From an uncultured Candidatus Saccharibacteria bacterium (GTDB taxonomy: Bacteria; Patescibacteriota; Minisyncoccia; UBA6257; JACRHY01): a stretch of DNA of 64,000 nucleotides. The notes under the pieces were generated by a model. That model was given only the letters and a program-made list of their open reading frames with translations, did no database searches and had not been told where the DNA came from. The stretch lies in NCBI GenBank assembly GCA_964360035.1, contig CAYHUJ010000001.1:2176-66175 (forward strand), read 5' to 3'. Shown in pieces: positions 2,005 to 64,000 of this stretch (positions are counted from its first letter, which is position 1; each line of letters starts with the position of its first letter). The position numbers were made by a program, and so were the translations under genes.

Positions 2005-3279
2005 ATGATAAACGACGAAAAAGCGGCGAAGCTGGCGAAGATTCTTCGCGTTGACCAGCGCGCTTTGGCCGAAATAAACGATTTAATGGAAGCCGCGACG
2101 GGAAAAAGCGGCGTTTTGGATGTTGTTTATGATGAAAATGAAACGTTGGCGCAGAAAGCGCTTGATAATTTGGGATTGGGCCGGAAAGTGCCGGCGGTGG
2201 AAGTGTACGACGCCCTGATCAGCAAGATAGAAGCCGACGATCTGGCGATTTTCAACGCGCTGGACCGTCCCGATTTGAACGAACCGGCGGATTGCCAGCG
2301 CGTGATTGACCTTGCCTCTAAAATTACGCCGGTGGGAAAAGGTTTTTTCCTGAAAAGAGAAATCGCCGAACGTTTTATTCTGAACGAGCCGCCGCGAAAA
2401 ATGATGGAATGCCGCGGTTATTCAACGGCTTCCGATCTGGTGGCAAACGAGGACATGCTGGAAGTCTTCGCCGCTTTGCGGATGGTGGAAGACCCCGGCT
2501 GGCTCAATAACGTTTTTTTCAAGCAGTACGAAAATCTCACCCCCGACGATTTTGAAGAGCGCGACATAAACGCGCGGGCGCTCCATAAAGAATGCGCGGT
2601 GATGGCGGAAAAATTCGTCAAGAAAAAATATCACAATATCAGCCACTTGAAAGAGCTGGGTGCCGTTTTCGTCATTCCGGTGGCGCTGGGAATTTCAGGA
2701 GAAATCATCCGCTCGGTTTCGCTCCTGGCGCACTACTTCAACGAGGTGAAGTTTTATTCGAACTTGTTCCGCTATTTCTCGTTAAACCGCAAGACCTTCG
2801 CGCAAAACGTCATTTCGCTCTTGCGGGGCGACGTCATTGAAGAACGCCTGCCGATTTTTCCCAAAGAACTGCGCCGGCCACGCTGGCTGATCGTCCAGCG
2901 CTATCTGGCCAAGGGAGATCCGAACGACTGGCGACTTTTTGAACCGCACGTCAATCCGGAGGCGCTGCACTGGCAGAAAGCGGAGCGGGGGATAAACGAC
3001 ATTGCCGAAGTAATGCCTCATTTTCGCAACGGCTTGGATTTTTGGAAAGAATTGGGATTCGTCGGCGATTTTTTCCAGACCGAAAGCGGCATTCCCGTTT
3101 TGGTGAGCTTCAACCTCGTTGACACGGCGATGTCGCTGGTTAAAGAAAAGGAGTTGTCAAAATATCTTTATCATCACCAGGAGGCGATGTGGAACAGGAT
3201 TTTTACGGAGTTTATGGGCGAAAAGAAAATGGACGAACTTATTCGCGACAACATCATTAAAGGATATTTTGAACTGTAA
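2005..3279 (+). CDS. Hypothetical protein (424 aa), conserved position between a sugar kinase and an aldolase
   Basis: Long ORF with core-genome codon bias and no recognisable catalytic motifs. Confidence 0.6.
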   Translation: MINDEKAAKLAKILRVDQRALAEINDLMEAATGKSGVLDVVYDENETLAQKALDNLGLGRKVPAVEVYDALISKIEADDLAIFNALDRPDLNEPADCQRVIDLASKITPVGKGFFLKREIAERFILNEPPRKMMECRGYSTASDLVANEDMLEVFAALRMVEDPGWLNNVFFKQYENLTPDDFEERDINARALHKECAVMAEKFVKKKYHNISHLKELGAVFVIPVALGISGEIIRSVSLLAHYFNEVKFYSNLFRYFSLNRKTFAQNVISLLRGDVIEERLPIFPKELRRPRWLIVQRYLAKGDPNDWRLFEPHVNPEALHWQKAERGINDIAEVMPHFRNGLDFWKELGFVGDFFQTESGIPVLVSFNLVDTAMSLVKEKELSKYLYHHQEAMWNRIFTEFMGEKKMDELIRDNIIKGYFEL

Positions 3280-6451: not shown

Positions 6452-7033
6452 TCAATCTTTGATTTTTTTGATGCCGACCCAGATAAGGGCGGCGAGCGAA
6501 AATCCCAGAATTACAAAGCGCAGATAATCGTCCATCTGCGACCAGTATTTCGCCGTTCCGACAAGAATCGCCAAAAGTCCTCCAAAAGTGAACCCCAAAG
6601 AAACCGCTTCGGCCGTCGTTAAAATGATTCCGCCGGCGAGAGCGGCTACTCCGATGATCACCCAAACAAGAAAAACGTTTCTTCGGTAAAGATTATCGGC
6701 GGCTTCAAATTCCTTTCCGCACCGGTAGGCGGTGTCGCACCATCCATTCTGCCGGGGATAAAGAGTGGGAGCCGGCGCCGCTTCCGGATAGGCGGGAACG
6801 GCTTTCAGGGGCACCGGTTCGCCGAATTCCCGGTTGTCGTTCCATCGCTCGCCAGCCTCTTCGCATGATTCTTGATCGGTATGCTGACGAGCCGCTTTTT
6901 CTCCGCAAAAGTCGCCCCAGACGGGCTGTTTTTTATAAAGCGTGTCTATGCCGTAATTGACGAAAAGATTAAATACGACGACTATGGCCAGAACGAGGGC
7001 CGTTTTTTTGAAATTTATTTGCGGCAGTTGCAT
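6452..7033 (-). CDS. Hypothetical membrane protein
   Basis: N-terminal TM segment plus two C-terminal TM segments; Cys/Trp-rich middle region. Confidence 0.5.
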   Translation of the reverse strand: MQLPQINFKKTALVLAIVVVFNLFVNYGIDTLYKKQPVWGDFCGEKAARQHTDQESCEEAGERWNDNREFGEPVPLKAVPAYPEAAPAPTLYPRQNGWCDTAYRCGKEFEAADNLYRRNVFLVWVIIGVAALAGGIILTTAEAVSLGFTFGGLLAILVGTAKYWSQMDDYLRFVILGFSLAALIWVGIKKIKD

Positions 7034-7034
7034 A

Positions 7035-7691
7035 TTATTTTTCTTCTATTGAAACGGATGTTAATTTTACGGGATTGACCGGCGTCGATTTTTCGCCGAG
7101 AGAGTTCGTTTTAACCGGCGCCTGCGCTATGTTATCAACGGCTTCCATTCCGCTGACGACCCGTCCGAAAATTACGTAGCTTTTCGGCAGGGGATAATCC
7201 CGGTGCATTATGAAAAACTGGCTGCCGTTCGTGTTCGGACCGGCGTTCGCCATCGCCACGATACCGCGGGAATAATCGCGGGTTATTTTTTCATCGGCAA
7301 AGCGGTAACCCGGACCGCCGGTGCCGTCTCCTTTCGGATCGCCGCCCTGAATCATGAAGCCGCTGATGGCTCGGTGGAAAATCGTGCCGTCGTAAAATCC
7401 TTGTCGCGCCAGAAAAACAAAATTATTTGCCGCTATGGGTGTTTCGGCGGAGAATAATTCTATTTTCGCGTCGCCCTCGGAGGTTTTTAAGGTCGCGAAA
7501 TAGCGCTTGTCGGCGTCAATTTCCATTTTCGGCGGCTGGTTCCACTGCATATTTGTTGTTTCTATTAATTGGTTATGGCTTGACGCGCCGTTCGCCGGCG
7601 CGCTGTTTTTTGGAGCAAGATAAATTTTTGATCCCGCTATCGCGGCGGCGGTTATCAAGGCGATTGCGGCGTATTTTATCCATCCGTTCAT
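7035..7691 (-). CDS. ppiB: Peptidyl-prolyl cis-trans isomerase, cyclophilin type, secreted
   Basis: FHRAISGFMIQGGDP and GSQFFI cyclophilin motifs, with an N-terminal signal/TM segment. Confidence 0.85.
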   Translation of the reverse strand: MNGWIKYAAIALITAAAIAGSKIYLAPKNSAPANGASSHNQLIETTNMQWNQPPKMEIDADKRYFATLKTSEGDAKIELFSAETPIAANNFVFLARQGFYDGTIFHRAISGFMIQGGDPKGDGTGGPGYRFADEKITRDYSRGIVAMANAGPNTNGSQFFIMHRDYPLPKSYVIFGRVVSGMEAVDNIAQAPVKTNSLGEKSTPVNPVKLTSVSIEEK

Positions 7692-8008
7692 TTTCCGCGC
7701 GTTTTTTCCGTATCATCGGCGGAAGGGTAAACGTCCCCGTTTTTCTTGATTTGTTCGTCTTCGTAGGGAGCGGCGAAGCGGCGGTAAAATTCCTCCCCGA
7801 TGTTTTTAAAAACGCCGCTGATAAGGGCGATCGCCCAGTAGCGTTTTTCCGGAATAGTTTGAAGCGCGAGCTTCGTACAGGCGTAATTTAACAAGCCGGC
7901 GAACGTTTTTTCGTCCCCCGTTTCTTTCGCCACGGCGTTTATTTCTTCGGCGAGTTTGGCGATGCGCGGATCCAGGCGATTTCGGTTGTTTTGGCTGATG
8001 TAAGGCAT
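7688..8008 (-). CDS. Hypothetical protein (106 aa)
   Basis: ORF with a 4-nt overlap onto ppiB, which suggests an operon. No motif recognised. Confidence 0.5.
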   Translation of the reverse strand: MPYISQNNRNRLDPRIAKLAEEINAVAKETGDEKTFAGLLNYACTKLALQTIPEKRYWAIALISGVFKNIGEEFYRRFAAPYEDEQIKKNGDVYPSADDTEKTRGK

Positions 8009-8091
8009 AATTTACGGAGATAAGTTATCCACAGTCGTTATTTTACTTGAATTTTATTTTTTGGTAAAGTTAAGCGGTTAATAATAAAAAG

Positions 8092-8150
8092 CTCCGCGTG
8101 TGAGGCGCGGGGTTTTTTGTTTTTGGCGGCGGTCGCATTCCGCCGCCGCA
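8092..8150. other. Two GC hairpins immediately left of the REP/RAYT unit (CCGCG-N7-CGCGG plus a T-run; GCGGCGG-N-CCGCCGC)
   Basis: Inverted repeats read directly at 8094-8124 and 8126-8150. No gene ends here on either strand, so they are not an ordinary gene terminator. They may belong to the mobile-element end. Confidence 0.3.
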
Positions 8151-8154
8151 TTCT

Positions 8155-8183
8155 AATCTTCGGACGTCGGACGTCCGAAGATT
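8155..8183. repeat. REP-A: 29-bp palindromic element AATCTTCGGACGTCGGACGTCCGAAGATT
   Basis: Perfect 14-bp arms around a central G. Contains the TCGGACGTCCGA core with an AatII site (GACGTC). Inverted copy of REP-C. Confidence 0.8.
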
Positions 8184-8208
8184 CTTGAATTGTGGTATCA
8201 TTACTTTT

Positions 8209-8898
8209 ATGGAAATTTATCATGTTCTTGACAGGGGAGTTGATAAAAGAAAAATATTTTTAGACAAAGAAGATTATTTTCGTTTTATTCACGATTTATT
8301 TGAATTTAACGATAAAGAAAATGCCGATCTCGCTTCCTATGTCTTTAATAAGCAATATTCGGACGTCCGACGTCCGAATATTGAAATTGGAAGGACTGAT
8401 CGCAAACCGAGGAAATTATTGGTGAAAATACACGCTTTTTGTTTAATGTCGAACCATTACCATTTATTACTTACGCCGGCCGTAGAAAACGGGATCGCTC
8501 TTTTTATGAAAAAAATCAACGGCGGATATGTAAAGTATTTTAATGAAAAATATGAAAGAAAAGGGACCTTATTTGAAGGGAAATATAAAAGAATTATAAT
8601 TAAAAATGAGGCGCATTTTATTCATCTGCCTTATTATATTCATTTAAACCCTCTTGATTTGGCGGCGCCGGAGTGGCGAGAGCGGAAAATTAAAAATTAT
8701 AAAAAAGCGATAAATTTTTTGGAATCTTATCGTTGGAGTAGTTACCTTGACTACATCGGCAAGAAAAACTTTCCGTCCGTTACCCAAAGAGAGTTTTTGA
8801 TGAATTTCTTTGAAAGTCCTAAACAATACAAAGAAAATATGATAAAGTATTTAGAGGAATTAGGTTTAGAAGAAATTAAAGATGTTTATTTGGAATAA
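8209..8898 (+). CDS. REP-associated tyrosine transposase (RAYT) / IS200-like Y1 HuH transposase
   Basis: N-terminal YHV.DRGVDKRKIFLDKEDY, the HuH motif SNHYHLLL, and the catalytic-Tyr region RKGTLFEGKYKRII. The ATG at 8209 (MEIYHV...) fits the family N-terminus better than the TTG at 8185. Confidence 0.75.
   Translation: MEIYHVLDRGVDKRKIFLDKEDYFRFIHDLFEFNDKENADLASYVFNKQYSDVRRPNIEIGRTDRKPRKLLVKIHAFCLMSNHYHLLLTPAVENGIALFMKKINGGYVKYFNEKYERKGTLFEGKYKRIIIKNEAHFIHLPYYIHLNPLDLAAPEWRERKIKNYKKAINFLESYRWSSYLDYIGKKNFPSVTQREFLMNFFESPKQYKENMIKYLEELGLEEIKDVYLE
8354..8382. repeat. REP-B: AATATTCGGACGTCCGACGTCCGAATATT, in-frame inside the RAYT gene (encodes YSDVRRPNI)
   Basis: Perfect 14-bp arms. Same core as REP-A/C but the flanks are AATATT instead of AATCTT. 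Confidence 0.8.
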
Positions 8899-11560
8899 AA
8901 GCAAAATAAATCTTCGAATGTTCAATCTTCGGACGTCCGACGTCCGAAGATTGGGGGTGGTGGTTGTTGCGACGCTTGTTTTTATTTTTTATTCCGGCGA
9001 AGTTTCCGCCGCTACGCGTACTTGGGACGGCGGGGGAGCCGATAACAACTGGTCAACGGACGCCAACTGGTCTGGTGATCGGGCCCCGTCTCTCAACGAC
9101 GATGTAGTCTTTGACGGCACTTCGGTGAAGAATTCGGCAATGGACAGCGGGTTGACAATCCTAAGCTTCAATGCCAGCTCCACTTACACCGGAGCGTTGA
9201 GTATCGCCAATGGAAACACCTTGACGGTAACCGGCAACTGGACATATAACGCCGCCAATTTTGACGCCGGCACATCCACGATAAAATTTACCGGCAACAC
9301 TGCTACTTTCACTCCCGGCGCTGTCAATTACTATAATCTTGAAGTGGCAAAACCTAGCAGTGGCTCCGACCTCAATATTTCCGGCACCGCCACCACTACC
9401 AATGATTTAATTATCAGCGCCGCCAACGATGACACCAATAACATCAACACCGGCACCGTCAATGTGGGCCGCAACGTCAGCATTACCAACGCTAATTTCG
9501 GAGGCGGCACGGCAACGGTGAACATGAACGGCTCCGGCAGTCAAAGCGTTTCGTCAAGCGGCGGCTGGCTACCTAATTTTTCCGTGAACAAGTCAGCCGG
9601 CACTCTTAGTTTGATTGGTACTGTTGTAATCGGAGGAAACTACACTCACACCGCCGGCACCGTTGACGCCGGCACTTCCACCCTGAAGTTTGTTGGCGGT
9701 ACCACTACTTTCACTCCCGGCGCTGTCAATTACTATAATCTTGAAGTGGCAAAACCTAGCAGTGGCTCCGACCTCAATATTTCCGGCACCGCCACCACTA
9801 CCAATGATTTAATTATCAGCGCCGCCAACGATGACACCAATAACATCAACACCGGCACCGTCAATGTGGGCCGCAACGTCAGCATTACCAACGCTAATTT
9901 CGGAGGCGGCACGGCAACGGTGAACATGAACGGCTCCGGCAGTCAAAGCGTTTCGTCAAGCGGCGGCTGGCTACCTAATTTTTCCGTGAACAAGTCAGCT
10001 GGCTCCACCACTATTGATAGCAATGTACGGGTGGGCGGGACATTGACGGTTACCGCCGGCGAGCTGCGCCACAACGCTTATACTCTACAAATTGACGGCG
10101 GAACGACGATTTCCTCCGGCGGAACGTTTTCCGATTACGCGACCGCTTCCAGCACGATTAAATTCGGTTCCACGATCACGAACAATGGAACGTTAATTTT
10201 GAACGGCGGAGGAACAAGTTGCGGCGACTTTGACTATGTTCTATTGCGTTCCACCGCCGACGGCACCCAGCGTTCCTGGTCCGGTTCCGGAACCTTCAAC
10301 ATCCAGGATGCCGACCTGAAAGACATGGGAGCAACCAGTGGTACCGTAACAGTTCGCAGCGGCACGAACTCCGGCAATAACGGCGGTTCGTGGACTTTCA
10401 ACTCCAACTGTCTTCCTTCCGCTTCCTTTGACAACGATTTTTCTTCCTGGAGCTCCGGCAACGCTACCGTCAATTACAAACTGATTGACCCCAATTCCGA
10501 CGCGTCCAATATCTCTCAAACGGCCGATTCAGGGATGGAATATTCCGCCGACGGCTCAACTTATTCGGACGCGACGCAGGGAACGGGAGGGGATGGAATG
10601 ACCAGCCTTTCTTCATCCGCCTCGCCCGGAACGTCTCATTCTTTCGCCTGGGCCAGCGCAACCGACCTGCCGAACACTGAAGATCTAACCGTCTATCTGC
10701 GCATTCGTCCCAATGACGGCAGTGAAAACGCTTCCGACTGGGCGACCTCCTCCGCTTTCGCGATTGACAACGTCGCCCCATCTTCCGTCGGCGCCCCGAC
10801 TTTCGGAACAATCACCTCTTCTTCCGTTGAAATCGTCAAGCCGACAGCTGTTACGGAAAACGGCTCCGGCCTCAATACCTGGCAGGCGAGAAGAGATTCG
10901 GCAACTGTCCTTTCCGCCGTCGCCACCACCACGGCTTCCGTCTCCGATTCTTCTTTGTCGGCGAATACCCAATATGCCTATGACGTCCGGTTCGCCGATT
11001 ACGCCGCCAACGCTTCCGCTTACGGGACGTCCGCTTCCAAATACACCCTAGCTCCGACTCCGGCTAATCTGGCCGCCGTCGCGGCAAGAATTTCCATCAC
11101 TCTTTCCGTTGACCAATTCACCAACGATACCGCCGGCTCGTCCGGATACTACTTCGTCAATTCCACCGCCTCCACCACCTCCGGCTGGATCCAGGCGAAC
11201 TTCTGGACCGACACCGGCTTGACCTGCGGCGTTTCCTATTCTTACACGGTCAAACACAGAAACGGCGACGGAACGGAAACGTCAACCGTTTCTCTTGACG
11301 CTTCAGCGTCCGCCTGCCAGTCGGAAACGGCCGCCCGGGTGTCTTACGCGATATCCCCGCTGAGAATTTACGACGCGCCAAAGCCGGAGAAAGTTTTGCC
11401 TATTCCCGCTTCGGAAGTTTATCGGGACAAAGCGACGCGGATCGCCGAGCTGCAAACGCAAATCCGGCAGCTGCAAGCGCGACTTCTGGATCTTTACCGC
11501 TTCCTGCTTCAGGCGTTGATTAAAGAGCTGGAGGAAAGATCGGGACGTATAAATTTTTGA
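8882..11560 (+). CDS. Large secreted surface protein/adhesin: signal peptide, autotransporter-associated beta-strand (PATR-like) motif, tandem beta-rich repeats, FN3-like domains, C-terminal coiled coil
   Basis: MFNLRTSDVRRLGVVVVATLVFIFYSGEVSAA looks like a signal peptide. TRTWDGGGADNNWSTDANWSGDRAPSLNDDVVFDG matches the PATR consensus. T/S/G/N-rich repeats are followed by FN3-like segments. Alternative start ATG at 8918. Confidence 0.7.
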   Translation: MFIWNKSKINLRMFNLRTSDVRRLGVVVVATLVFIFYSGEVSAATRTWDGGGADNNWSTDANWSGDRAPSLNDDVVFDGTSVKNSAMDSGLTILSFNASSTYTGALSIANGNTLTVTGNWTYNAANFDAGTSTIKFTGNTATFTPGAVNYYNLEVAKPSSGSDLNISGTATTTNDLIISAANDDTNNINTGTVNVGRNVSITNANFGGGTATVNMNGSGSQSVSSSGGWLPNFSVNKSAGTLSLIGTVVIGGNYTHTAGTVDAGTSTLKFVGGTTTFTPGAVNYYNLEVAKPSSGSDLNISGTATTTNDLIISAANDDTNNINTGTVNVGRNVSITNANFGGGTATVNMNGSGSQSVSSSGGWLPNFSVNKSAGSTTIDSNVRVGGTLTVTAGELRHNAYTLQIDGGTTISSGGTFSDYATASSTIKFGSTITNNGTLILNGGGTSCGDFDYVLLRSTADGTQRSWSGSGTFNIQDADLKDMGATSGTVTVRSGTNSGNNGGSWTFNSNCLPSASFDNDFSSWSSGNATVNYKLIDPNSDASNISQTADSGMEYSADGSTYSDATQGTGGDGMTSLSSSASPGTSHSFAWASATDLPNTEDLTVYLRIRPNDGSENASDWATSSAFAIDNVAPSSVGAPTFGTITSSSVEIVKPTAVTENGSGLNTWQARRDSATVLSAVATTTASVSDSSLSANTQYAYDVRFADYAANASAYGTSASKYTLAPTPANLAAVAARISITLSVDQFTNDTAGSSGYYFVNSTASTTSGWIQANFWTDTGLTCGVSYSYTVKHRNGDGTETSTVSLDASASACQSETAARVSYAISPLRIYDAPKPEKVLPIPASEVYRDKATRIAELQTQIRQLQARLLDLYRFLLQALIKELEERSGRINF
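8924..8952. repeat. REP-C: AATCTTCGGACGTCCGACGTCCGAAGATT, inside the 5-prime end of the surface-protein ORF (encodes NLRTSDVRRL)
   Basis: Exact reverse complement of REP-A. Confidence 0.8.
9262..10065. repeat. Tandem duplication with a 402-bp period; cores 9303-9597 and 9705-9999 are identical (295 bp)
   Basis: The identical 64-aa antisense ORFs at 9331..9525 and 9733..9927 in the ORF track are offset by 402 nt. The protein repeats a roughly 134-aa unit. Confidence 0.85.
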
Positions 11561-57647: not shown

Positions 57648-57915
57648 AAATTTAAATTTTGATTAATTTCAGACGCGCAACGGCAGGATGGAGCCGCCGG
57701 TTTCAAAATAAACAAAAGACGGGCCTTTTACGATTATTATAGCAAAACCCGTTTTAACTTCAAATCCACATCCCGGTCCAAACGCATAGGCGTAAAACCT
57801 TATGTGTCTGGATTAGGGATGCTCCGCCGACGCCGTTCCCCCGCTGATATCATACGATTGCTTAATTTTTGAGCGGGCCGCCAGGCGAAGTTGAAACAGG
57901 CCCGGTTTGAATTTG

Positions 57916-57986
57916 AGCGGGATACGAGAATTGAACTCGCGTCTGTTGCTTGGGAAGCAACCGTACTGCCACCGTACGAATCCCGC
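57916..57986 (-). tRNA. tRNA-Gly (anticodon CCC)
   Basis: Folded by hand. Acceptor GCGGGAT/ATCCCGC. D arm GTAC-GGTGGCA-GTAC. Anticodon arm GTTGC-TTCCCAA-GCAAC. T arm GCGAG-TTCAATT-CTCGT. U73 discriminator as expected for Gly. No encoded CCA. Confidence 0.8.
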
Positions 57987-58028
57987 TCCAGTAATAAAAC
58001 CAAGTCAGTTTTCCCAAAATTTTTACGA

Positions 58029-58083
58029 GCAAAGCGGAGCTTTGCGGCGGCTGGCGGCGGGATTTTAGATGGCTTGCGGGGGG
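58029..58083. repeat. IR-L: left 55-56-bp inverted repeat (GCAAAGCGGAGCTTTGCGGCGGCTGGCGGCGGGATTTTAGATGGCTTGCGGGGGG)
   Basis: Its reverse complement occurs at 60070-60125 with one mismatch. Confidence 0.85.
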
Positions 58084-58091
58084 AAATTTCC

Positions 58092-58122
58092 TTGAACAAT
58101 CTTTATCTTGGTATGGTATAAT
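58092..58122 (+). promoter_or_regulatory. Sigma-70-like promoter just inside IR-L (TTGAAC -35; extended -10 TGGTATAAT)
   Basis: Motifs read from the sequence. The spacing is about 19 nt, slightly long. Confidence 0.4.
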
Positions 58123-58148
58123 GTATATGTAATCAATAAGTTGCTTTT

Positions 58149-59501
58149 ATGGAATCAACTACTTCATTTCTAATCGTCGCGCTTGGTTATCTTGCCTTTG
58201 GCATAGCGACGGTAATTTGGATAACCAAAAAGAAAAAGGCGGGCGAGAAGATTTCTTTGCTGGCAAAGATTATCATCGCCATGGTTGTTCTTTCCAGTTC
58301 TTCCGCTCTTCTTTCTGTAATTATTGAGCCGTCTCCGGAGCAGGAGACAAACGCTCCCGAAACCAGCACTCTTTACGTAAAAGAGGGAGGCGCGAATGTC
58401 CGCGAATGTCCTTCAACTTCGTGCAAAGTGATTAGCACGCTTCCCCAGAACGCGTGGTTCACGTTTTCGGGCGATTCTTACGACAAATATCCCAATTGGG
58501 CCGAAGTTACCCTTCTGGACGGGCGGGGCGGCTATGTGAGCAAAAGCACGCTTTCTTTTGAAGTATCCGAAGTGCCGCAGCCGCAAGAAAATGGAATCAG
58601 ATTGGCAAAATGGAACTTTGATCCGTTGGAAATCGACGGTTCGTATGGCATTTCGTTTTGCATTCCGGATTCAGCACGCTCCGGAGCAACCTGCGGCGGC
58701 CTTGCCGGAGACACCCAAACCCCGATCGGCGGTTCCCCGCCATATTCGTTCGTCAAAAGCTCCGGCTTTCTGCCGCCTGGAATGTCGCTTGAGCTGAACG
58801 GCCTGCTTTCGGGTTCGCCGACAACCGAAGGCACTTATAATTTTAAACTTTGCGCCAAGGATTTATCAATGAACCAGGGGTGCGAGAATTACACGCTGGT
58901 GGTGAAAAAAGAAGATTCAATTGCTCAACCTTCCTCTGGCGGAAATTATAAAGCAGTTTTGTCGTTTACTGCCGATATGCAAAATTATCAACGCAATAAC
59001 GATTCGCTGCTCGCTAATAACGAACATGTATCCGTGACAGTTACGGCTAGTAGATCAGAACAAGATGAACAGGGTAGTAAAAGTATCAGCAGTTATAATT
59101 TTTCTTCTACTGGACGAAGCAGTATTTACGTAAGTAGTAATTGTATATCGCAGTATAGCGGGACTTTTGGCGATAATTTGGACTCCGGACCAGGAGCCAT
59201 ATACGGTTATCTGCCTTCCCGTCCACTTATATTCAAAGCAAGAACAGGATACGCCGGGGATTATAGGGATTTTGATTATACGCCATTATCAGCAGATTTT
59301 TGTGCGACTTGGCCTCCGGATGTGTTCATAAGAGAGGTTTTGTCGGACATTATATCCGGCACAGGAGGGGGCATTGCCCTAGATCAACGCAGCTTGAATC
59401 CGGCAGGAGAAACTATTTCTTTTAGCAACGATTATCGTCCCGAACATTTAGCTACAGACAGAATTACTTATAACGGCACGCTGGTATTTACGAAAGAGTA
59501 A
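58149..59501 (+). CDS. Membrane-anchored surface protein with a bacterial SH3 (SH3b) domain and a putative Ig (dystroglycan/cadherin-like) domain
   Basis: Two N-terminal TM segments. SH3b-like LYVKEGGANVRECPSTSCKVISTLPQNAWFTF...YVSKSTL. PPYSF...LPPGMSL...GSPTTEGTYNF matches the putative Ig domain pattern. GC is lower than the core genome. Confidence 0.6.
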   Translation: MESTTSFLIVALGYLAFGIATVIWITKKKKAGEKISLLAKIIIAMVVLSSSSALLSVIIEPSPEQETNAPETSTLYVKEGGANVRECPSTSCKVISTLPQNAWFTFSGDSYDKYPNWAEVTLLDGRGGYVSKSTLSFEVSEVPQPQENGIRLAKWNFDPLEIDGSYGISFCIPDSARSGATCGGLAGDTQTPIGGSPPYSFVKSSGFLPPGMSLELNGLLSGSPTTEGTYNFKLCAKDLSMNQGCENYTLVVKKEDSIAQPSSGGNYKAVLSFTADMQNYQRNNDSLLANNEHVSVTVTASRSEQDEQGSKSISSYNFSSTGRSSIYVSSNCISQYSGTFGDNLDSGPGAIYGYLPSRPLIFKARTGYAGDYRDFDYTPLSADFCATWPPDVFIREVLSDIISGTGGGIALDQRSLNPAGETISFSNDYRPEHLATDRITYNGTLVFTKE

Positions 59502-59516
59502 CTCGTTTATCAGGGG

Positions 59517-59912
59517 ATGAAACTTCTCGATAAAAAATGGAAATGGGCGGCGGCGGTAATTTTGCTGCCGGTGGTTGTTATATTGATCGGGATCTACGTA
59601 TATTTTTTTTGGACCTGTTGCCCGGAGCCGGCAACTGAACGTTTAAGAGCTTCGTGTCAAGTGGAAGGAGGATTTTTTGTTGAAGAGTTGGAACAATGCC
59701 AACTGCCGGCATCGGACGCGGGGAAAACATGCAAAGATTCATCCGAATGCGAGGGTTTCTGCGAAGCGGATCTGTCCCCGGATGAAATATCAAAAATAAC
59801 CAACGGGGAACGAGTGGAAAAAACGGGCGCCTGCGGGCGGTGGAAAAACTTTTTTGCGGGATGTTTTTATATAATAGAAGACAGCGCGGTTGAGAGATTT
59901 TGCGCTGACTAA
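59517..59912 (+). CDS. Small membrane-anchored Cys-rich (10 Cys) protein
   Basis: TM segment, then a CC...C...C..C...C.C...C...C pattern suggesting a disulfide-rich ectodomain. Confidence 0.5.
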   Translation: MKLLDKKWKWAAAVILLPVVVILIGIYVYFFWTCCPEPATERLRASCQVEGGFFVEELEQCQLPASDAGKTCKDSSECEGFCEADLSPDEISKITNGERVEKTGACGRWKNFFAGCFYIIEDSAVERFCAD

Positions 59913-59924
59913 CGCCGAATTAAT

Positions 59925-60053
59925 ATGAAGAAACTTTATCTCATTTTAAAAATTCTGCTCATTCTGGCGGCTTTAATCGCGCTGGGCTATTTACTTACTC
60001 CCACCGACAGTGAAGTCATTTTGAAAAGGCCATGGCTTGAAAAGGCCGAATAG
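59925..60053 (+). CDS. Possible 42-aa hydrophobic peptide (MKKLYLILKILLILAALIALGYLLTPTDSEVILKRPWLEKAE)
   Basis: Hand-translated; below the ORF-track cutoff; immediately inside IR-R. Confidence 0.25.
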   Translation: MKKLYLILKILLILAALIALGYLLTPTDSEVILKRPWLEKAE

Positions 60054-60069
60054 TGTGAAAGGGGTTTTC

Positions 60070-60125
60070 CCCCCCGCAAGCCGTCTAAAATCCCGCCGCC
60101 AGCCGCCGCAAAGCTCCGCTTTGCC
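60070..60125. repeat. IR-R: right inverted repeat, reverse complement of IR-L (55/56 identical)
   Basis: Direct comparison of the two sequences. Confidence 0.85.
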
Positions 60126-60275
60126 CATTGTCCCAAGCCAATTCCGCTCGCTTCGCTCGTTTTTAGAGTGAGGTTCAAAAATTCAAAAGCCGAAGATTTT
60201 AAGGTACAACACTTGCCCCACCATCCCGTGCGCGTGTTAAAAACTTTTGCCGTCTTGAAAGACCGGCAAACCCCC

Positions 60276-63200
60276 TTATTTCCCGCGGCCAAGATTATTC
60301 CAATCTTTTTTCTTAAGGAGTTCAAGAACGGGTGCATCTTTCTTGTCTTTAGGAATAATAGGCATGGTCTCATCGTTTATACCTGCCATATCCAAATCGT
60401 TCGGACCTATTTCCCACGCCTCTCTATCGTTAAAGGATGTTTTAACAATACCTACATCAAACAGAACTCTGGGCTGGGGTTGGGTCCCATCAATGATTGC
60501 TGGTGCCAGTAAATAAATACCAAATCTTTTAAAGCTTGCTGAAAACATATCAAGATTTGTTGTGGCATCGGGGGTCAGGGTATGCACTCTCGACACAGTA
60601 ATAAGACGCTGATTCTTTGGCGGTCTTTTTGTAAGGTCAAGATTTGTAGTAACAACTGCACGATACCAAGCAGGATTTTTTTCTGAAACTCCTCGTATCA
60701 TCGAAATTCTAATCGTCTCATCCGCATCTTTTTCGCCAAATATACCTCTCCAATCCTTAAATATCGCTCTGGCTTTTTCTTCGTTTTTAAACAAGAAGGC
60801 CATTACAGGCGGACGGCTAGGTATTGTGATGTAAAGCACACCGCCCCAGCCCGCTTCGTCCCATAGATGTTGGCGGATTACCGAGACATTCTTAATTTCG
60901 TCATGCCGCTTTGGAGTACCAGAAGATTTTTCCTCACTTTCTTCTTTTTTAAATTCTTTGGTTTTAACAGGCTTTCCACTTTTTTCAGGGGTGTATGGAT
61001 ATAAAGTTGCCTCAGGATTTATCCAGTTAAGGATAGATCTTTTAGGGTTATACCCCAAGACATTTCCCAAAGTAACCATTGGCGTAGAGAAACTGAAGGC
61101 CCTAGAATTAACTTCCTCGTCTTTAAAAAGTTTGAGCAAATCAACGTCAGCATCTTTGAAAAGGACAGTGTTTGCAATCAGGTGCAATACAATCTCCGAG
61201 ATTTTAGAGGAAATTTTTTCCTGTTGCTCTTTTGAAAGAGAGTGAGGACTAAAAGAACCACAGGTAATAGCTATGCCGAATTTACCGTCTTTTTGAATCT
61301 CATATATTATTTCTTCCTTTAGTGATTCATCGCGTGTGATCGTGATATAGGCACTGCTGTCTCTTGAGGCGGCATCCATTTCCAAAGTGGTAGACAAAAA
61401 GCTCTCAAGAGCCGCGAGAACATACTCGCCGATTTCGATTTCGGGGCTACCGTTGGGTGCTTTGATAATATATTCGCATCCTAGAACGCTTGACCTTAAT
61501 TCCACTACTTCACCAATATAGTATTCTGGCGCGCTTGGCAGATTTTCTTGAGCAGGTTGGGAAAGATATGAATTGAAAAATTCATCAACTTCATCGGGAG
61601 GCATCTTTTCCTTAAAAGAATCTGGAACCATGTCTTTTCCACCAAGACGGTATAGCAAGCCAAAGGCGGCAAAATCTAGGTCCATCTGCATTAACGTATC
61701 GGGTAGTTTCTCTAATATTTTCAATTGCTCGTCAAGTGTTTTGATTACCAGCAGCCCCATAAGCGAACCAAAGAAAAGATCATCATTCAGTAGTTTTGAT
61801 TTTTGTTCATCTGTTTTTAAAAGTTGAGCAGAGAGAAGATGGTGAAGCTGATGCCACTCAAGTGCGTATCCTATTCGGCCTAATTGGACCTCAATAGTTC
61901 TCAATCTTTTGTAGCAAGCGAGCTGCATTGTGTTGATTTTGCTATACACCCAAAAATCACTTGTTGCATGGGAGGCGGCATTCAACAGTACGCCGCGAGC
62001 AGCCCAAAGTAGGCCAGCATCTTCATAGGCAAATGAAAGAGTGAATAGCGCATGAACTAGCTGGTCCTTGCTCTCTTTTTTGTAAAAACGCCTTAGCGCT
62101 CTACCGAGAAAATCTATAGCCTTGTAAGTTCTCCTGCCTTTTAAATGTTGGATTCCACGATTAAGGAGTATTTCACCTGCCGCAAGTTCTCCTTCTCTGT
62201 TCGTCACCACCTCAACCAGATGCTCTTGAAGTTCTTCGTAAGCGCTTTCACCATTGAATACGTCATCCATTTCATTCAAGAGCCGGAAGGTTATTTCAAA
62301 GGGGAAACCGATAAGGTTGCTGGCCTTATCCATCACATCTTTAAGTTGCCGAAATGCTTTTGCTACTTCTGCAGGGTCATCTCTTTTGCGTAAAAGATTC
62401 GCAAAACAGAGCATGGCTTCTGCGTGTACCGATGCACTGGAATTAGCCTTATTACTTTTATGGGTTTCCAGTTTTTCAAAAAGATTTTTTGTTTTTTCCT
62501 CAAGCATTTCAGGCGACACCAAGTTAGATGTGCCAGCAAGAGCGGACAGAAGACCCCAAAGATTATTCAGCCTTTCGGCGGAAAATATGTTATTTGAGGC
62601 AAGTGCAAGTTTTTCTATGGCATCGTACTGCTTTAAAAAGGCATTAAAATCTTCAAACCAAAAGAACGTGGTCCATGCTCGTTGATATAAAGCGGTGAAC
62701 TGTTGGTCGCTAGTGCCGTGCTCATTAGCAAATCGTATTGCACGATCAAATAAAGATTCGACATCCTGACGCGGCTCATCAAGCTCCGCAGCTATTAACG
62801 CCGCGTCTAAGCACTCGTCAACGGTTTTTATCGTGACACTGGACTTACTTACGTCTTCTGCGATAGAGGAATTTAATTCATCGAACTGCTTTTTTCTTTG
62901 TGAATCCAAGGGACCGGCTTCTTTTTTTTCCTCAAGCCCATCTCCCATTTTTAATTCTTCAATAGCAAGCTTCTGCCTTTTATTTGCAAAAACCTTATCA
63001 AGAATCCAATTCCTATCAAGGACAACAACCTGAAAGCTGTATTTTTTAGACAATTCGTCCTCCAGAGTTGCTCTTGTTTTGTCCCTCGCAAATTCACTCG
63101 TTATACAAAAGACTTTTGCGTAAGACCTGCCTGTTTTATGTATTTCTTCGGTGTCGCTTCTAATTTTTCCTGACCAATCTTTTTGAGTGCTAAAAGCAAA

Positions 63201-63524
63201 GGCAAAATCTTCCTTGCTTTGATTGTCCTGACCTTGGAAAAAAGCACTTCGTATTTGAGAAGCGACAGGGATTGTAGATGAGTCAACTTTGCTATCGCCG
63301 CCGCCCGTAGAGCCAGTTTGAGGTCGAAGGTTGGGGCAAATCTCGTATTGACAAAGCTTCCGCGCGAATTCTTCAAAATCCTGCTCCTGTTTTCTTTGCC
63401 CCAAGGTATCTAAGTGATACTCAAGGGTCGTACGGTTTAGTTTGCTCTCCGTTACTATTTTTGAATCAGAAAACCTGTGAGGTTTTCTTTTTTTCATAAA
63501 ATCTTTTGGGGACGGAATACTCAT
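60276..63524 (-). CDS. Large (1082 aa) protein: N-terminal Mrr-type PD-(D/E)xK restriction-endonuclease catalytic domain plus a roughly 880-aa helical region of unknown function; no Walker A motif
   Basis: N-terminal DFEEFARKLCQYE...GSTGGGDSKVD...FAFSTQKDWSGKIRSD...AKVFCITSEFARDK...QVVVLDRNWIL follows the Mrr_cat consensus as I recall it (FEe..a.ll..lGy.....g.sgDgGiD..., vQcKr, ifvTtssFs.eA). About 40% GC. The start codon abuts the stop of the upstream HEPN gene. Confidence 0.7.
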   Translation of the reverse strand: MSIPSPKDFMKKRKPHRFSDSKIVTESKLNRTTLEYHLDTLGQRKQEQDFEEFARKLCQYEICPNLRPQTGSTGGGDSKVDSSTIPVASQIRSAFFQGQDNQSKEDFAFAFSTQKDWSGKIRSDTEEIHKTGRSYAKVFCITSEFARDKTRATLEDELSKKYSFQVVVLDRNWILDKVFANKRQKLAIEELKMGDGLEEKKEAGPLDSQRKKQFDELNSSIAEDVSKSSVTIKTVDECLDAALIAAELDEPRQDVESLFDRAIRFANEHGTSDQQFTALYQRAWTTFFWFEDFNAFLKQYDAIEKLALASNNIFSAERLNNLWGLLSALAGTSNLVSPEMLEEKTKNLFEKLETHKSNKANSSASVHAEAMLCFANLLRKRDDPAEVAKAFRQLKDVMDKASNLIGFPFEITFRLLNEMDDVFNGESAYEELQEHLVEVVTNREGELAAGEILLNRGIQHLKGRRTYKAIDFLGRALRRFYKKESKDQLVHALFTLSFAYEDAGLLWAARGVLLNAASHATSDFWVYSKINTMQLACYKRLRTIEVQLGRIGYALEWHQLHHLLSAQLLKTDEQKSKLLNDDLFFGSLMGLLVIKTLDEQLKILEKLPDTLMQMDLDFAAFGLLYRLGGKDMVPDSFKEKMPPDEVDEFFNSYLSQPAQENLPSAPEYYIGEVVELRSSVLGCEYIIKAPNGSPEIEIGEYVLAALESFLSTTLEMDAASRDSSAYITITRDESLKEEIIYEIQKDGKFGIAITCGSFSPHSLSKEQQEKISSKISEIVLHLIANTVLFKDADVDLLKLFKDEEVNSRAFSFSTPMVTLGNVLGYNPKRSILNWINPEATLYPYTPEKSGKPVKTKEFKKEESEEKSSGTPKRHDEIKNVSVIRQHLWDEAGWGGVLYITIPSRPPVMAFLFKNEEKARAIFKDWRGIFGEKDADETIRISMIRGVSEKNPAWYRAVVTTNLDLTKRPPKNQRLITVSRVHTLTPDATTNLDMFSASFKRFGIYLLAPAIIDGTQPQPRVLFDVGIVKTSFNDREAWEIGPNDLDMAGINDETMPIIPKDKKDAPVLELLKKKDWNNLGRGK

Positions 63525-63525
63525 A

Positions 63526-64000
63526 TTATTTTTTCTTCAATTTTTGAAGTTCTTTATATGCTTCATAATATCGTTTACATTCCTCTTGAGGATCCGTTAT
63601 CCTTCGGTGAAAAAATTTTGTTAGCTCTTGTCTTGTTGCCCAAGCATCAAAAAATACTTGCGCGAAACTGTCAGCATCTCTAAAAGGATTCCGGCCCTTA
63701 TATCGTATCTTTTCAACATTATTTTGATGTGCGACTTGATTTCTCAAATCGGATAGCGGCTTTATGCTGGCAATATCATATGGCCAATTTTTAAGTATAG
63801 GCCATAAAATTTTGTACATATTACCAAAACTTAATTCCTCAACCATTTTTTCTAAATCGGCAAAAACTTTTTTATCATCATCTTCTTTGCCGGTTTCAAA
63901 AACTATCGGTTTGAAATAGTGATAAAAAATCTGACGAAACAAAATCTCTATCCCAGCGTGAATATCAAAAATTACCGACCTAACAAAATGATCATCGTCC
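63526..64000 (-). CDS. Abi_2 (AbiD/AbiF)-like protein with a HEPN Rx4H motif (LRNQVAH); 5-prime end outside the window
   Basis: The frame stays open to the window edge (the ORF-track start is a TTG). PLSDLRNQVAHQNN matches the RNxxAH HEPN signature of Abi-like proteins. Its stop lies 2 nt from the start of the 1082-aa gene. Confidence 0.55.
   Translation of the reverse strand, partial: DDDHFVRSVIFDIHAGIEILFRQIFYHYFKPIVFETGKEDDDKKVFADLEKMVEELSFGNMYKILWPILKNWPYDIASIKPLSDLRNQVAHQNNVEKIRYKGRNPFRDADSFAQVFFDAWATRQELTKFFHRRITDPQEECKRYYEAYKELQKLKKK

Follow-up and report, generated by a model that had tools for sequence, protein, structure and literature searches.

A HEPN-like protein, predicted to be a ribonuclease, encoded at the end of a restriction-modification operon in an uncultured Candidatus Saccharibacteria genome

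A 64,000-nucleotide stretch of genome from an uncultured Candidatus Saccharibacteria bacterium (GenBank assembly GCA_964360035.1, contig CAYHUJ010000001.1, positions 2,176 to 66,175 of the forward strand; the whole stretch is referred to here as the window) ends inside a gene whose predicted product carries a motif of the kind found in HEPN ribonucleases (RNases). The initial annotation described it as an Abi_2-like gene of the abortive-infection type, cut by the window edge and lying almost in contact with a gene for a protein of 1082 amino acids (aa). This raises the questions of whether the gene is real and encodes a HEPN protein, to which family it belongs, whether the two neighboring genes act together, and what the protein might do. 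The reading that we prefer, to which we assign a probability of roughly 0.6, is that the product is a single-domain, all-helical protein with a HEPN fold, that its gene closes an acquired restriction-modification (R-M) operon, and that it is a predicted RNase providing backup defence at the RNA level. The relevant features of the window are the following.

63526 to 64000, minus strand: the 3' 83% of a stand-alone HEPN-like gene (188 aa), from the translation and from a full copy in locus L007.
63727 to 63744, minus strand: codons for R117-N118-Q-V-A-H122, the HEPN Rx4H motif and predicted catalytic site, from the sequence, its conservation and an alignment with Csm6.
63934 to 63948, minus strand: codons for E49-I-L-F-R53, an E-x3-R motif in the first long helix, conserved and matching the second HEPN signature, Ex3[KR].

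The minus-strand reading frame is free of stops from 63999 to the TAA at 63528-63526 and gives 157 residues, corresponding to codons 32-188 and the stop codon, with base 64000 as the third base of codon 31. Within this translation LSDLRNQVAHQNN carries the HEPN-type motif LSDLRNQVAH, in which the R117 codon occupies 63744-63742 and the H122 codon 63729-63727; the coordinates and the motif given in the initial annotation are right, although its figure of about 75 residues after the motif is slightly high, as 66 residues follow the H and 71 follow the R. The remainder of the gene is available because an identical copy of the 1082-aa neighbor is present on a 68.8-kb groundwater metagenome contig (L007), which represents the same genome: across 13,725 bases of overlap with the window there are 5 mismatches, all outside the HEPN gene. 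This contig reaches 2,672 nt past base 64000 and contains the full-length gene at 2581-3147 (188 codons), confirming that a real gene is cut by the window edge with its frame still open. The ATG lies 92 nt outside the window and just 31 N-terminal codons are missing or incomplete, such that the N-terminal part does extend beyond the window, as proposed, but consists of 31 residues and not of a large domain. The NCBI entry for the protein is MEK7521117.1, a 'hypothetical protein' from a Patescibacteria group bacterium metagenome-assembled genome (MAG).

A homologue search returns 39 relatives with E-values down to 2e-92 and a uniform length of 188-201 aa. Comparison with four loci encoding 87-94% identical proteins gives ratios of nonsynonymous to synonymous substitution (dN/dS) of 0.03-0.09, with dN of 0.03-0.07 and dS of 0.35-2.9, the synonymous sites being diverged or near saturation. 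Both the gene and its conservation exceed chance. The bare motif is by itself uninformative, since Rx4-6H is found in 26 of 64 non-overlapping open reading frames (ORFs) in the window (the stricter RNx3H in 2 of 64), and the case for a HEPN domain must therefore rest on conservation, fold and context.

Conservation is concentrated at the predicted catalytic positions. The R, N, Q, A and H of the motif are invariant in alignments of 25 and of 34 homologues (A1 and A2), in both of which E49 and R53 are conserved at 90% or more. In a deeper alignment (A5) of 44 divergent sequences, all with no more than 41% identity to the window protein and reaching down to ~17%, H122 is the sole invariant residue, and E49, R117 and N118 are the sole other positions conserved at 90% or more; the motif is clearly retained in orthologues. 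The two signatures described for HEPN domains are Rx4-6H with a polar residue (N, D or H) directly after the R, and an upstream Ex3[KR] (PMC3710099), and both are present, as R117-N118-x3-H122 and E49-x3-R53.

Profile comparisons point the same way at lower strength. The window fragment scores 15.6 bits against HEPN_RiboL-PSP, below the 28.4-bit cut-off, and such sub-threshold matches recur family-wide: 17 of 25 members match HEPN_RiboL-PSP (best E 6.7e-5), the same number match Abi_2 weakly (best E 0.0015), and further weak matches to HEPN_Swt1, HEPN_Apea and pEK499_p136 bring the HEPN families to five altogether. The sole Pfam entry that the full-length protein matches at E <= 0.01 is DUF6548. 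Among PDB sequences, a profile of the family places its consensus ndLRNqvAHkad onto INNLRNKVAHNLD in the HEPN domain of Enterococcus italicus Csm6 (E 0.03-0.07), in register with INNLRNKVAH, the Csm6 catalytic motif (6tug). Matches to RecA concatemers have formally better E-values and were rejected as artefacts of six repeated weak 2-bit segments, which leaves Csm6 as the single meaningful match. An AlphaFold2 model of a 91%-identical full-length homologue (P0001) is entirely helical with a pLDDT of 88.9, and we regard the fold evidence as supportive, not decisive by itself. Taking all of these lines together, membership of the HEPN superfamily is very likely and the RNx3H motif is intact, in good agreement with the HEPN RNase signature claimed in the initial annotation.

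The contig that completes the gene also reveals its setting. The HEPN gene is the fourth and last in a tightly packed operon of co-directional genes, as follows.

Gene 1 (L007): a 67-aa XRE-type helix-turn-helix (HTH) protein, located where R-M operons usually have their controller protein.
Gene 2 (L007): an EcoRI-type N6-adenine methylase (Pfam E 1.8e-118; PADLOC MTase_II 1e-99).
Gene 3 (L007): a protein with GmrSD_N (ParB-like, DUF262) and HNH domains, the restriction enzyme (PADLOC REase_II 2.8e-79).
Gene 4 (L007, 2581-3147): the HEPN gene, 188 aa.

The suspected defence context is borne out in the form of a Type II R-M operon. The guanine-plus-cytosine (GC) content is 36% for the cassette and 33% for the HEPN gene, compared to 50% for the genome (0.497 +/- 0.031 in 2-kb windows), and the AT-richness of the cassette indicates recent horizontal acquisition. 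In the window itself (57915-64000) the GC content drops from ~50% to 40-33% across the last ~6 kb, beginning near a tRNA-Gly(CCC) gene at 57915-57986, which suggests that a genomic island carrying the defence genes was inserted beside the tRNA gene. Just 5' of the 67-aa HTH gene, past the end of the window, there is an 18-nt palindromic element, CCATAGTATACTCTATGG (L007 41-58), which may be a candidate operator (C-box) for the controller protein. A scan of the operon for promoters and terminators gives the same counts as shuffled sequence.

The arrangement is not peculiar to this genome. The methylase-restriction endonuclease-HEPN cassette is also present in three other unrelated contigs (L013, from Peribacteria, L029 and L043), making four independent loci together with L007, in all of which the GmrSD_N (ParB-like) plus HNH gene is directly upstream of the HEPN gene. 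The HEPN protein is the best conserved component of the cassette at 93% identity, followed by the restriction enzyme at 81-85% and the methylase at 63-72%. In L029 (6087-6629) the C-terminus of the HEPN protein is divergent and shortened (180 residues, ending IGASGRN) in an otherwise intact cassette, probably through a frameshift or an assembly error. In other close relatives the HEPN gene ends an R-M operon of Type I or a related kind or is located within one, except in L014, which has a GmrSD gene nearby (RT, reverse transcriptase):

L002: HTH-HsdR-HsdM-HsdS-HEPN
L003: HsdM-HsdM-HsdS-AbiP2 RT-HsdR-HEPN
L005: HsdR-HsdM-RT-HsdS-HEPN
L025: HSDR_N_2/N6_Mtase-HsdS-HEPN
L026: HsdM-x-HEPN-HsdS
L014: a GmrSD gene two genes downstream of HEPN

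Among the 12 informative loci of the close clade (i.e. those with at least 75% identity to the window protein), Type I, Type II or Type IV restriction genes adjoin the HEPN gene in ten, the exceptions being L006, where it lies beside RuBisCO, and L027, where it lies beside a resolvase. In the R-M-associated operons the genes run in the same direction and are spaced -4 to 20 nt apart. Two of the Type I hsd operons that end in the HEPN gene also contain a defence-type reverse transcriptase, AbiP2 in L003 (5034-6521; PADLOC E 6e-189) and RT_UG13b in L005 (4094-5464; E 2e-106), in different gene orders.

More distant members have more varied surroundings. The sole R-M-embedded one is L018 (46% identity), with the order HsdM-HsdS-Abi_C-HEPN-DUF6119-HsdR, in a Thalassospiraceae MAG; the three genes between hsdS and hsdR (6791-9655), encoding an Abi_C/AbiJ-like protein, the HEPN homologue and a DUF6119 protein (Pfam E 2e-140), are a nested defence cluster within the Type I R-M operon. 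The remainder are located in small mobile islands or beside housekeeping genes, some with clade-specific upstream and downstream partners that are unrelated between clades. In a clade of ~60% identity the gene directly before HEPN has no Pfam domain (L031 5955-6980 and L032 6355-7017; 341 and 220 aa, mutually 72% identical). In the most distant branch (~22% identity, with RN..AH kept) an uncharacterised 207-aa gene lies upstream and makes up a conserved module of two genes with the HEPN homologue (L045 6360-7579 and L046 2993-4212); in a 2.7-Mb genome the module is flanked by methionine-synthesis genes and leuS, in an arrangement resembling a toxin-antitoxin pair.

Proteins with more than 90% identity are found in Patescibacteria, Parcubacteria, Omnitrophota and Bacteroidota MAGs, and the family is largely restricted to uncultured lineages such as Patescibacteria. 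Searches of phage and plasmid collections with tblastn give no match, and a phage or plasmid origin of the gene was rejected. Two homologues (P0029 and P0032) bear the JGI name 'DNA-directed RNA polymerase subunit F', which is unsupported by any analysis here and looks like an annotation error.

The close spacing with the 1082-aa gene raises the possibility of a two-gene system.

60276 to 63524, minus strand: the 1082-aa gene, which starts 1 nt past the HEPN stop codon at a TAATATG junction.

The initial annotation had pointed out how near the HEPN stop codon (63526) is to this start (63524), and only one base (63525) separates them. There is no terminator-like site at the junction on the coding strand, and in this genome the two genes are probably co-transcribed. 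Five HEPN loci (L002, L003, L013, L029 and L043) have different downstream genes and none has a homologue of the 1082-aa gene after the HEPN gene; three loci with homologues of the 1082-aa gene (L022-L024) have no HEPN gene beside them. The 1082-aa gene is thus not a conserved HEPN partner but a mobile module of its own, and a two-gene system was rejected, the pair occurring in this strain only. The tight junction reflects no conserved partnership.

The family to which the protein belongs is less readily named. 'Abi_2-like' is a fair description as a resemblance, since the nearest families are HEPN_RiboL-PSP and Abi_2, which have been grouped together in the Abi2/Swt1 group (Anantharaman et al. 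2013, PMC3710099). Membership of Abi_2 itself does not hold up. The window fragment scores 14.8 bits compared to a cut-off of 25.6, and the alignment covers fragment residues 3-38, i.e. the N-terminal helix alone, with the motif outside. PbAbiF is a 297-residue chain with catalytic R210/H215, and the 188-aa window protein is ~100 residues shorter. AbiF systems come with an abiF RNA motif (RF03085) (PMC12373285), which is absent here, as a scan of L007 1-7200 against Rfam gives nothing at E <= 0.1; the gaps around the HEPN gene are 20 nt upstream and 1 nt downstream. A Type III toxin-antitoxin or abiF RNA was rejected given the missing intergenic space and the lack of an Rfam match.

Searched exhaustively with an HMMER profile, 1.84 billion representatives yield 94 clusters at E <= 0.001, none of them Pfam-annotated, and a profile of the 44 divergent members searched against 5.8 billion proteins returns 44 matches, all of which are also without Pfam annotation. 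Neither of these large searches provides a bridge to an annotated family. Judged by sequence comparison, the family is a small isolated cluster with its nearest relatives in the Abi2/Swt1/RiboL-PSP part of the HEPN superfamily. Pfam, NCBIfam, PADLOC and PHROGs all lack a model for it, and its members carry either the label hypothetical or the JGI name RNA polymerase subunit F, such that current defence-system annotation misses it.

HEPN proteins with an intact Rx4-6H motif are metal-independent endoribonucleases that act as dimers, and links to R-M systems are known for at least 16 HEPN clades, with PrrC and EcoprrI as the model, the RNase being released once restriction is neutralised (PMC3710099). 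HepS provides an example of a single HEPN protein that is both phage sensor and abortive-infection executor (PMC13043305). Given these precedents, we infer the following mode of action. The protein would dimerise, with two sets of E49, R117, N118 and H122 composing a metal-independent endoribonuclease site, and the predicted cleavage would leave 2',3'-cyclic phosphate ends. In uninfected cells the RNase would be latent. When a phage passes or disables DNA restriction, the enzyme would halt translation by cleaving tRNA, rRNA or mRNA of the host or the phage, and would thus form a second line of defence, at the RNA level and of the abortive-infection type. We favour a self-contained sensor-effector of the HepS kind over a PrrC-style latch on one R-M subunit, because near-identical proteins accompany unrelated R-M types and sometimes stand alone, and because no conserved antitoxin was found. 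A stronger version can be envisaged, in which the family is an antitoxin-free, self-contained HEPN sensor-effector, horizontally mobile and able to join Type I, Type II (ParB/HNH) and Type IV systems alike as a universal add-on, and is fired by a signal common to restriction failure (e.g. an anti-restriction protein or a translation-linked cue) instead of by contact with a particular R-M subunit. This would explain why the HEPN protein is 93% identical where its partners are 63-85% identical, as well as the low dN/dS and the near-identical copies in several phyla, but we consider it speculative and rather improbable.

Several observations weigh against the interpretation as a backup-defence RNase. 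Neither the fragment nor the full-length protein reaches a curated threshold in Pfam, NCBIfam, PADLOC or PHROGs, and read strictly the absence of an Abi_2/HEPN profile match for the full-length protein at curated thresholds is an outcome that the initial annotation had named as refuting its reading. A Foldseek search against the PDB finds nothing significant (best E 0.67). Purifying selection is very strong, which is unusual for a defence effector, and the loci yielded neither an antitoxin nor a conserved partner to account for the tolerance of a constitutive RNase. Furthermore, R-M neighbors are present in roughly 1 of 13 more distant members, and the R-M link therefore marks the close clade and not the whole family.

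Four other explanations have to be weighed alongside these points. In the first the protein is a generic helical bundle with a coincidental Rx4H motif and not a HEPN domain at all, which seems highly improbable. A true AbiD/AbiF (Pfam Abi_2) protein, as the initial annotation implied, under the control of an abiF-type non-coding RNA, would share the HEPN fold and RN..AH-type motif, but the low-scoring match that omits the motif, the length of 188 aa versus 297 residues, the absence of RF03085 with no space for such an RNA, and the failure of both HMMER and word-based profile searches to bridge to a Pfam-annotated protein leave it with very little likelihood.

Less easily set aside, though still unlikely, are two readings that accept a HEPN-like domain. 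In one the protein is non-catalytic (MtlR/YggD-like) and serves the R-M operon as a regulatory or RNA/protein-binding accessory, e.g. by tuning expression or assembly. However, no positions are better conserved than the catalytic E, R, N and H, even among homologues with as little as ~20% identity, whereas HEPN branches without catalysis (part of MtlR) have lost the motif (PMC3710099), and the protein is also present without any R-M neighbor. In the other the mobile R-M island is kept stable through post-segregational killing by an addiction (toxin-antitoxin-like) module, with the HEPN-like protein as toxin and an unrecognised neighbor protein, small ORF or RNA as antitoxin. Here the contexts examined contain no MNT or other nucleotidyltransferase and no common partner, the upstream partners of different clades are mutually unrelated, and gaps of -4 to 20 nt leave no upstream room for an RNA antitoxin, for which Rfam is likewise empty; we therefore view an addiction role as doubtful. 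A defence RNase at the end of an R-M operon remains the reading that we prefer.

HEPN RNases attached to R-M systems have long been predicted to be a suicidal second line, acting on RNA, behind the restriction of DNA, and few such predictions have been tested beyond PrrC. A profile of the present family would improve the annotation of defence islands in candidate-phyla genomes, and the recurrent four-gene cassette (controller, methylase, restriction enzyme and HEPN) offers a simple construct for the backup-defence idea. Apart from the annotation gain and this cassette, the finding fits established knowledge.

Among known systems, RiboL-PSP-HEPN (PF18735) provides the best profile match, sub-threshold and aligning fragment residues 6-104 to profile positions 46-169, the catalytic motif included. 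The Rx4H is intact in both, and the description of that family as 'in operon with ParB' (PMC3710099) is matched by the ParB-like GmrSD_N/DUF262 domain encoded directly upstream here; the window protein differs in scoring below 28.4 bits, in having no fusion to an L-PSP endoribonuclease domain, and in belonging to an isolated cluster. With Abi_2/AbiD/AbiF (PF07751; PbAbiF, PDB 8vz6) it shares the probable HEPN fold, the RN..AH-type motif, the prediction of a dimeric RNase, and neighborhoods of defence and R-M genes, Abi2 being found embedded in R-M operons and beside a ParB plus HNH protein (PMC3710099). The HEPN-MNT (type VII) toxin-antitoxin systems likewise have a small stand-alone HEPN RNase as toxin and are putative structural neighbors (7ae2, 8xdj), but no MNT nucleotidyltransferase gene adjoins the window family in any locus examined. 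HepS (PDB 9oik) has no detectable sequence similarity to the window protein, is encoded by a prophage (Gifsy-1) and is triggered by siphovirus tail-tip proteins, whereas the phage and plasmid collections searched contain no member of the window family. A parallel in gene organization is PrrC in the EcoprrI Type Ic R-M locus, where a gene for a HEPN-type RNase is embedded in an R-M operon, much as several close homologues are inside or at the end of hsdRMS operons. PrrC has a regulatory N-terminal ABC ATPase and is latched by EcoprrI; the window protein is a bare 188-aa domain without an ATPase, and since unrelated R-M types come with near-identical copies of it, a specific R-M latch is unlikely. 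R-M operons that carry a HEPN RNase gene are a well established kind of arrangement, and this family is an unmodelled member of that kind; its unusual features are the very strong purifying selection and the promiscuous association with different R-M types.
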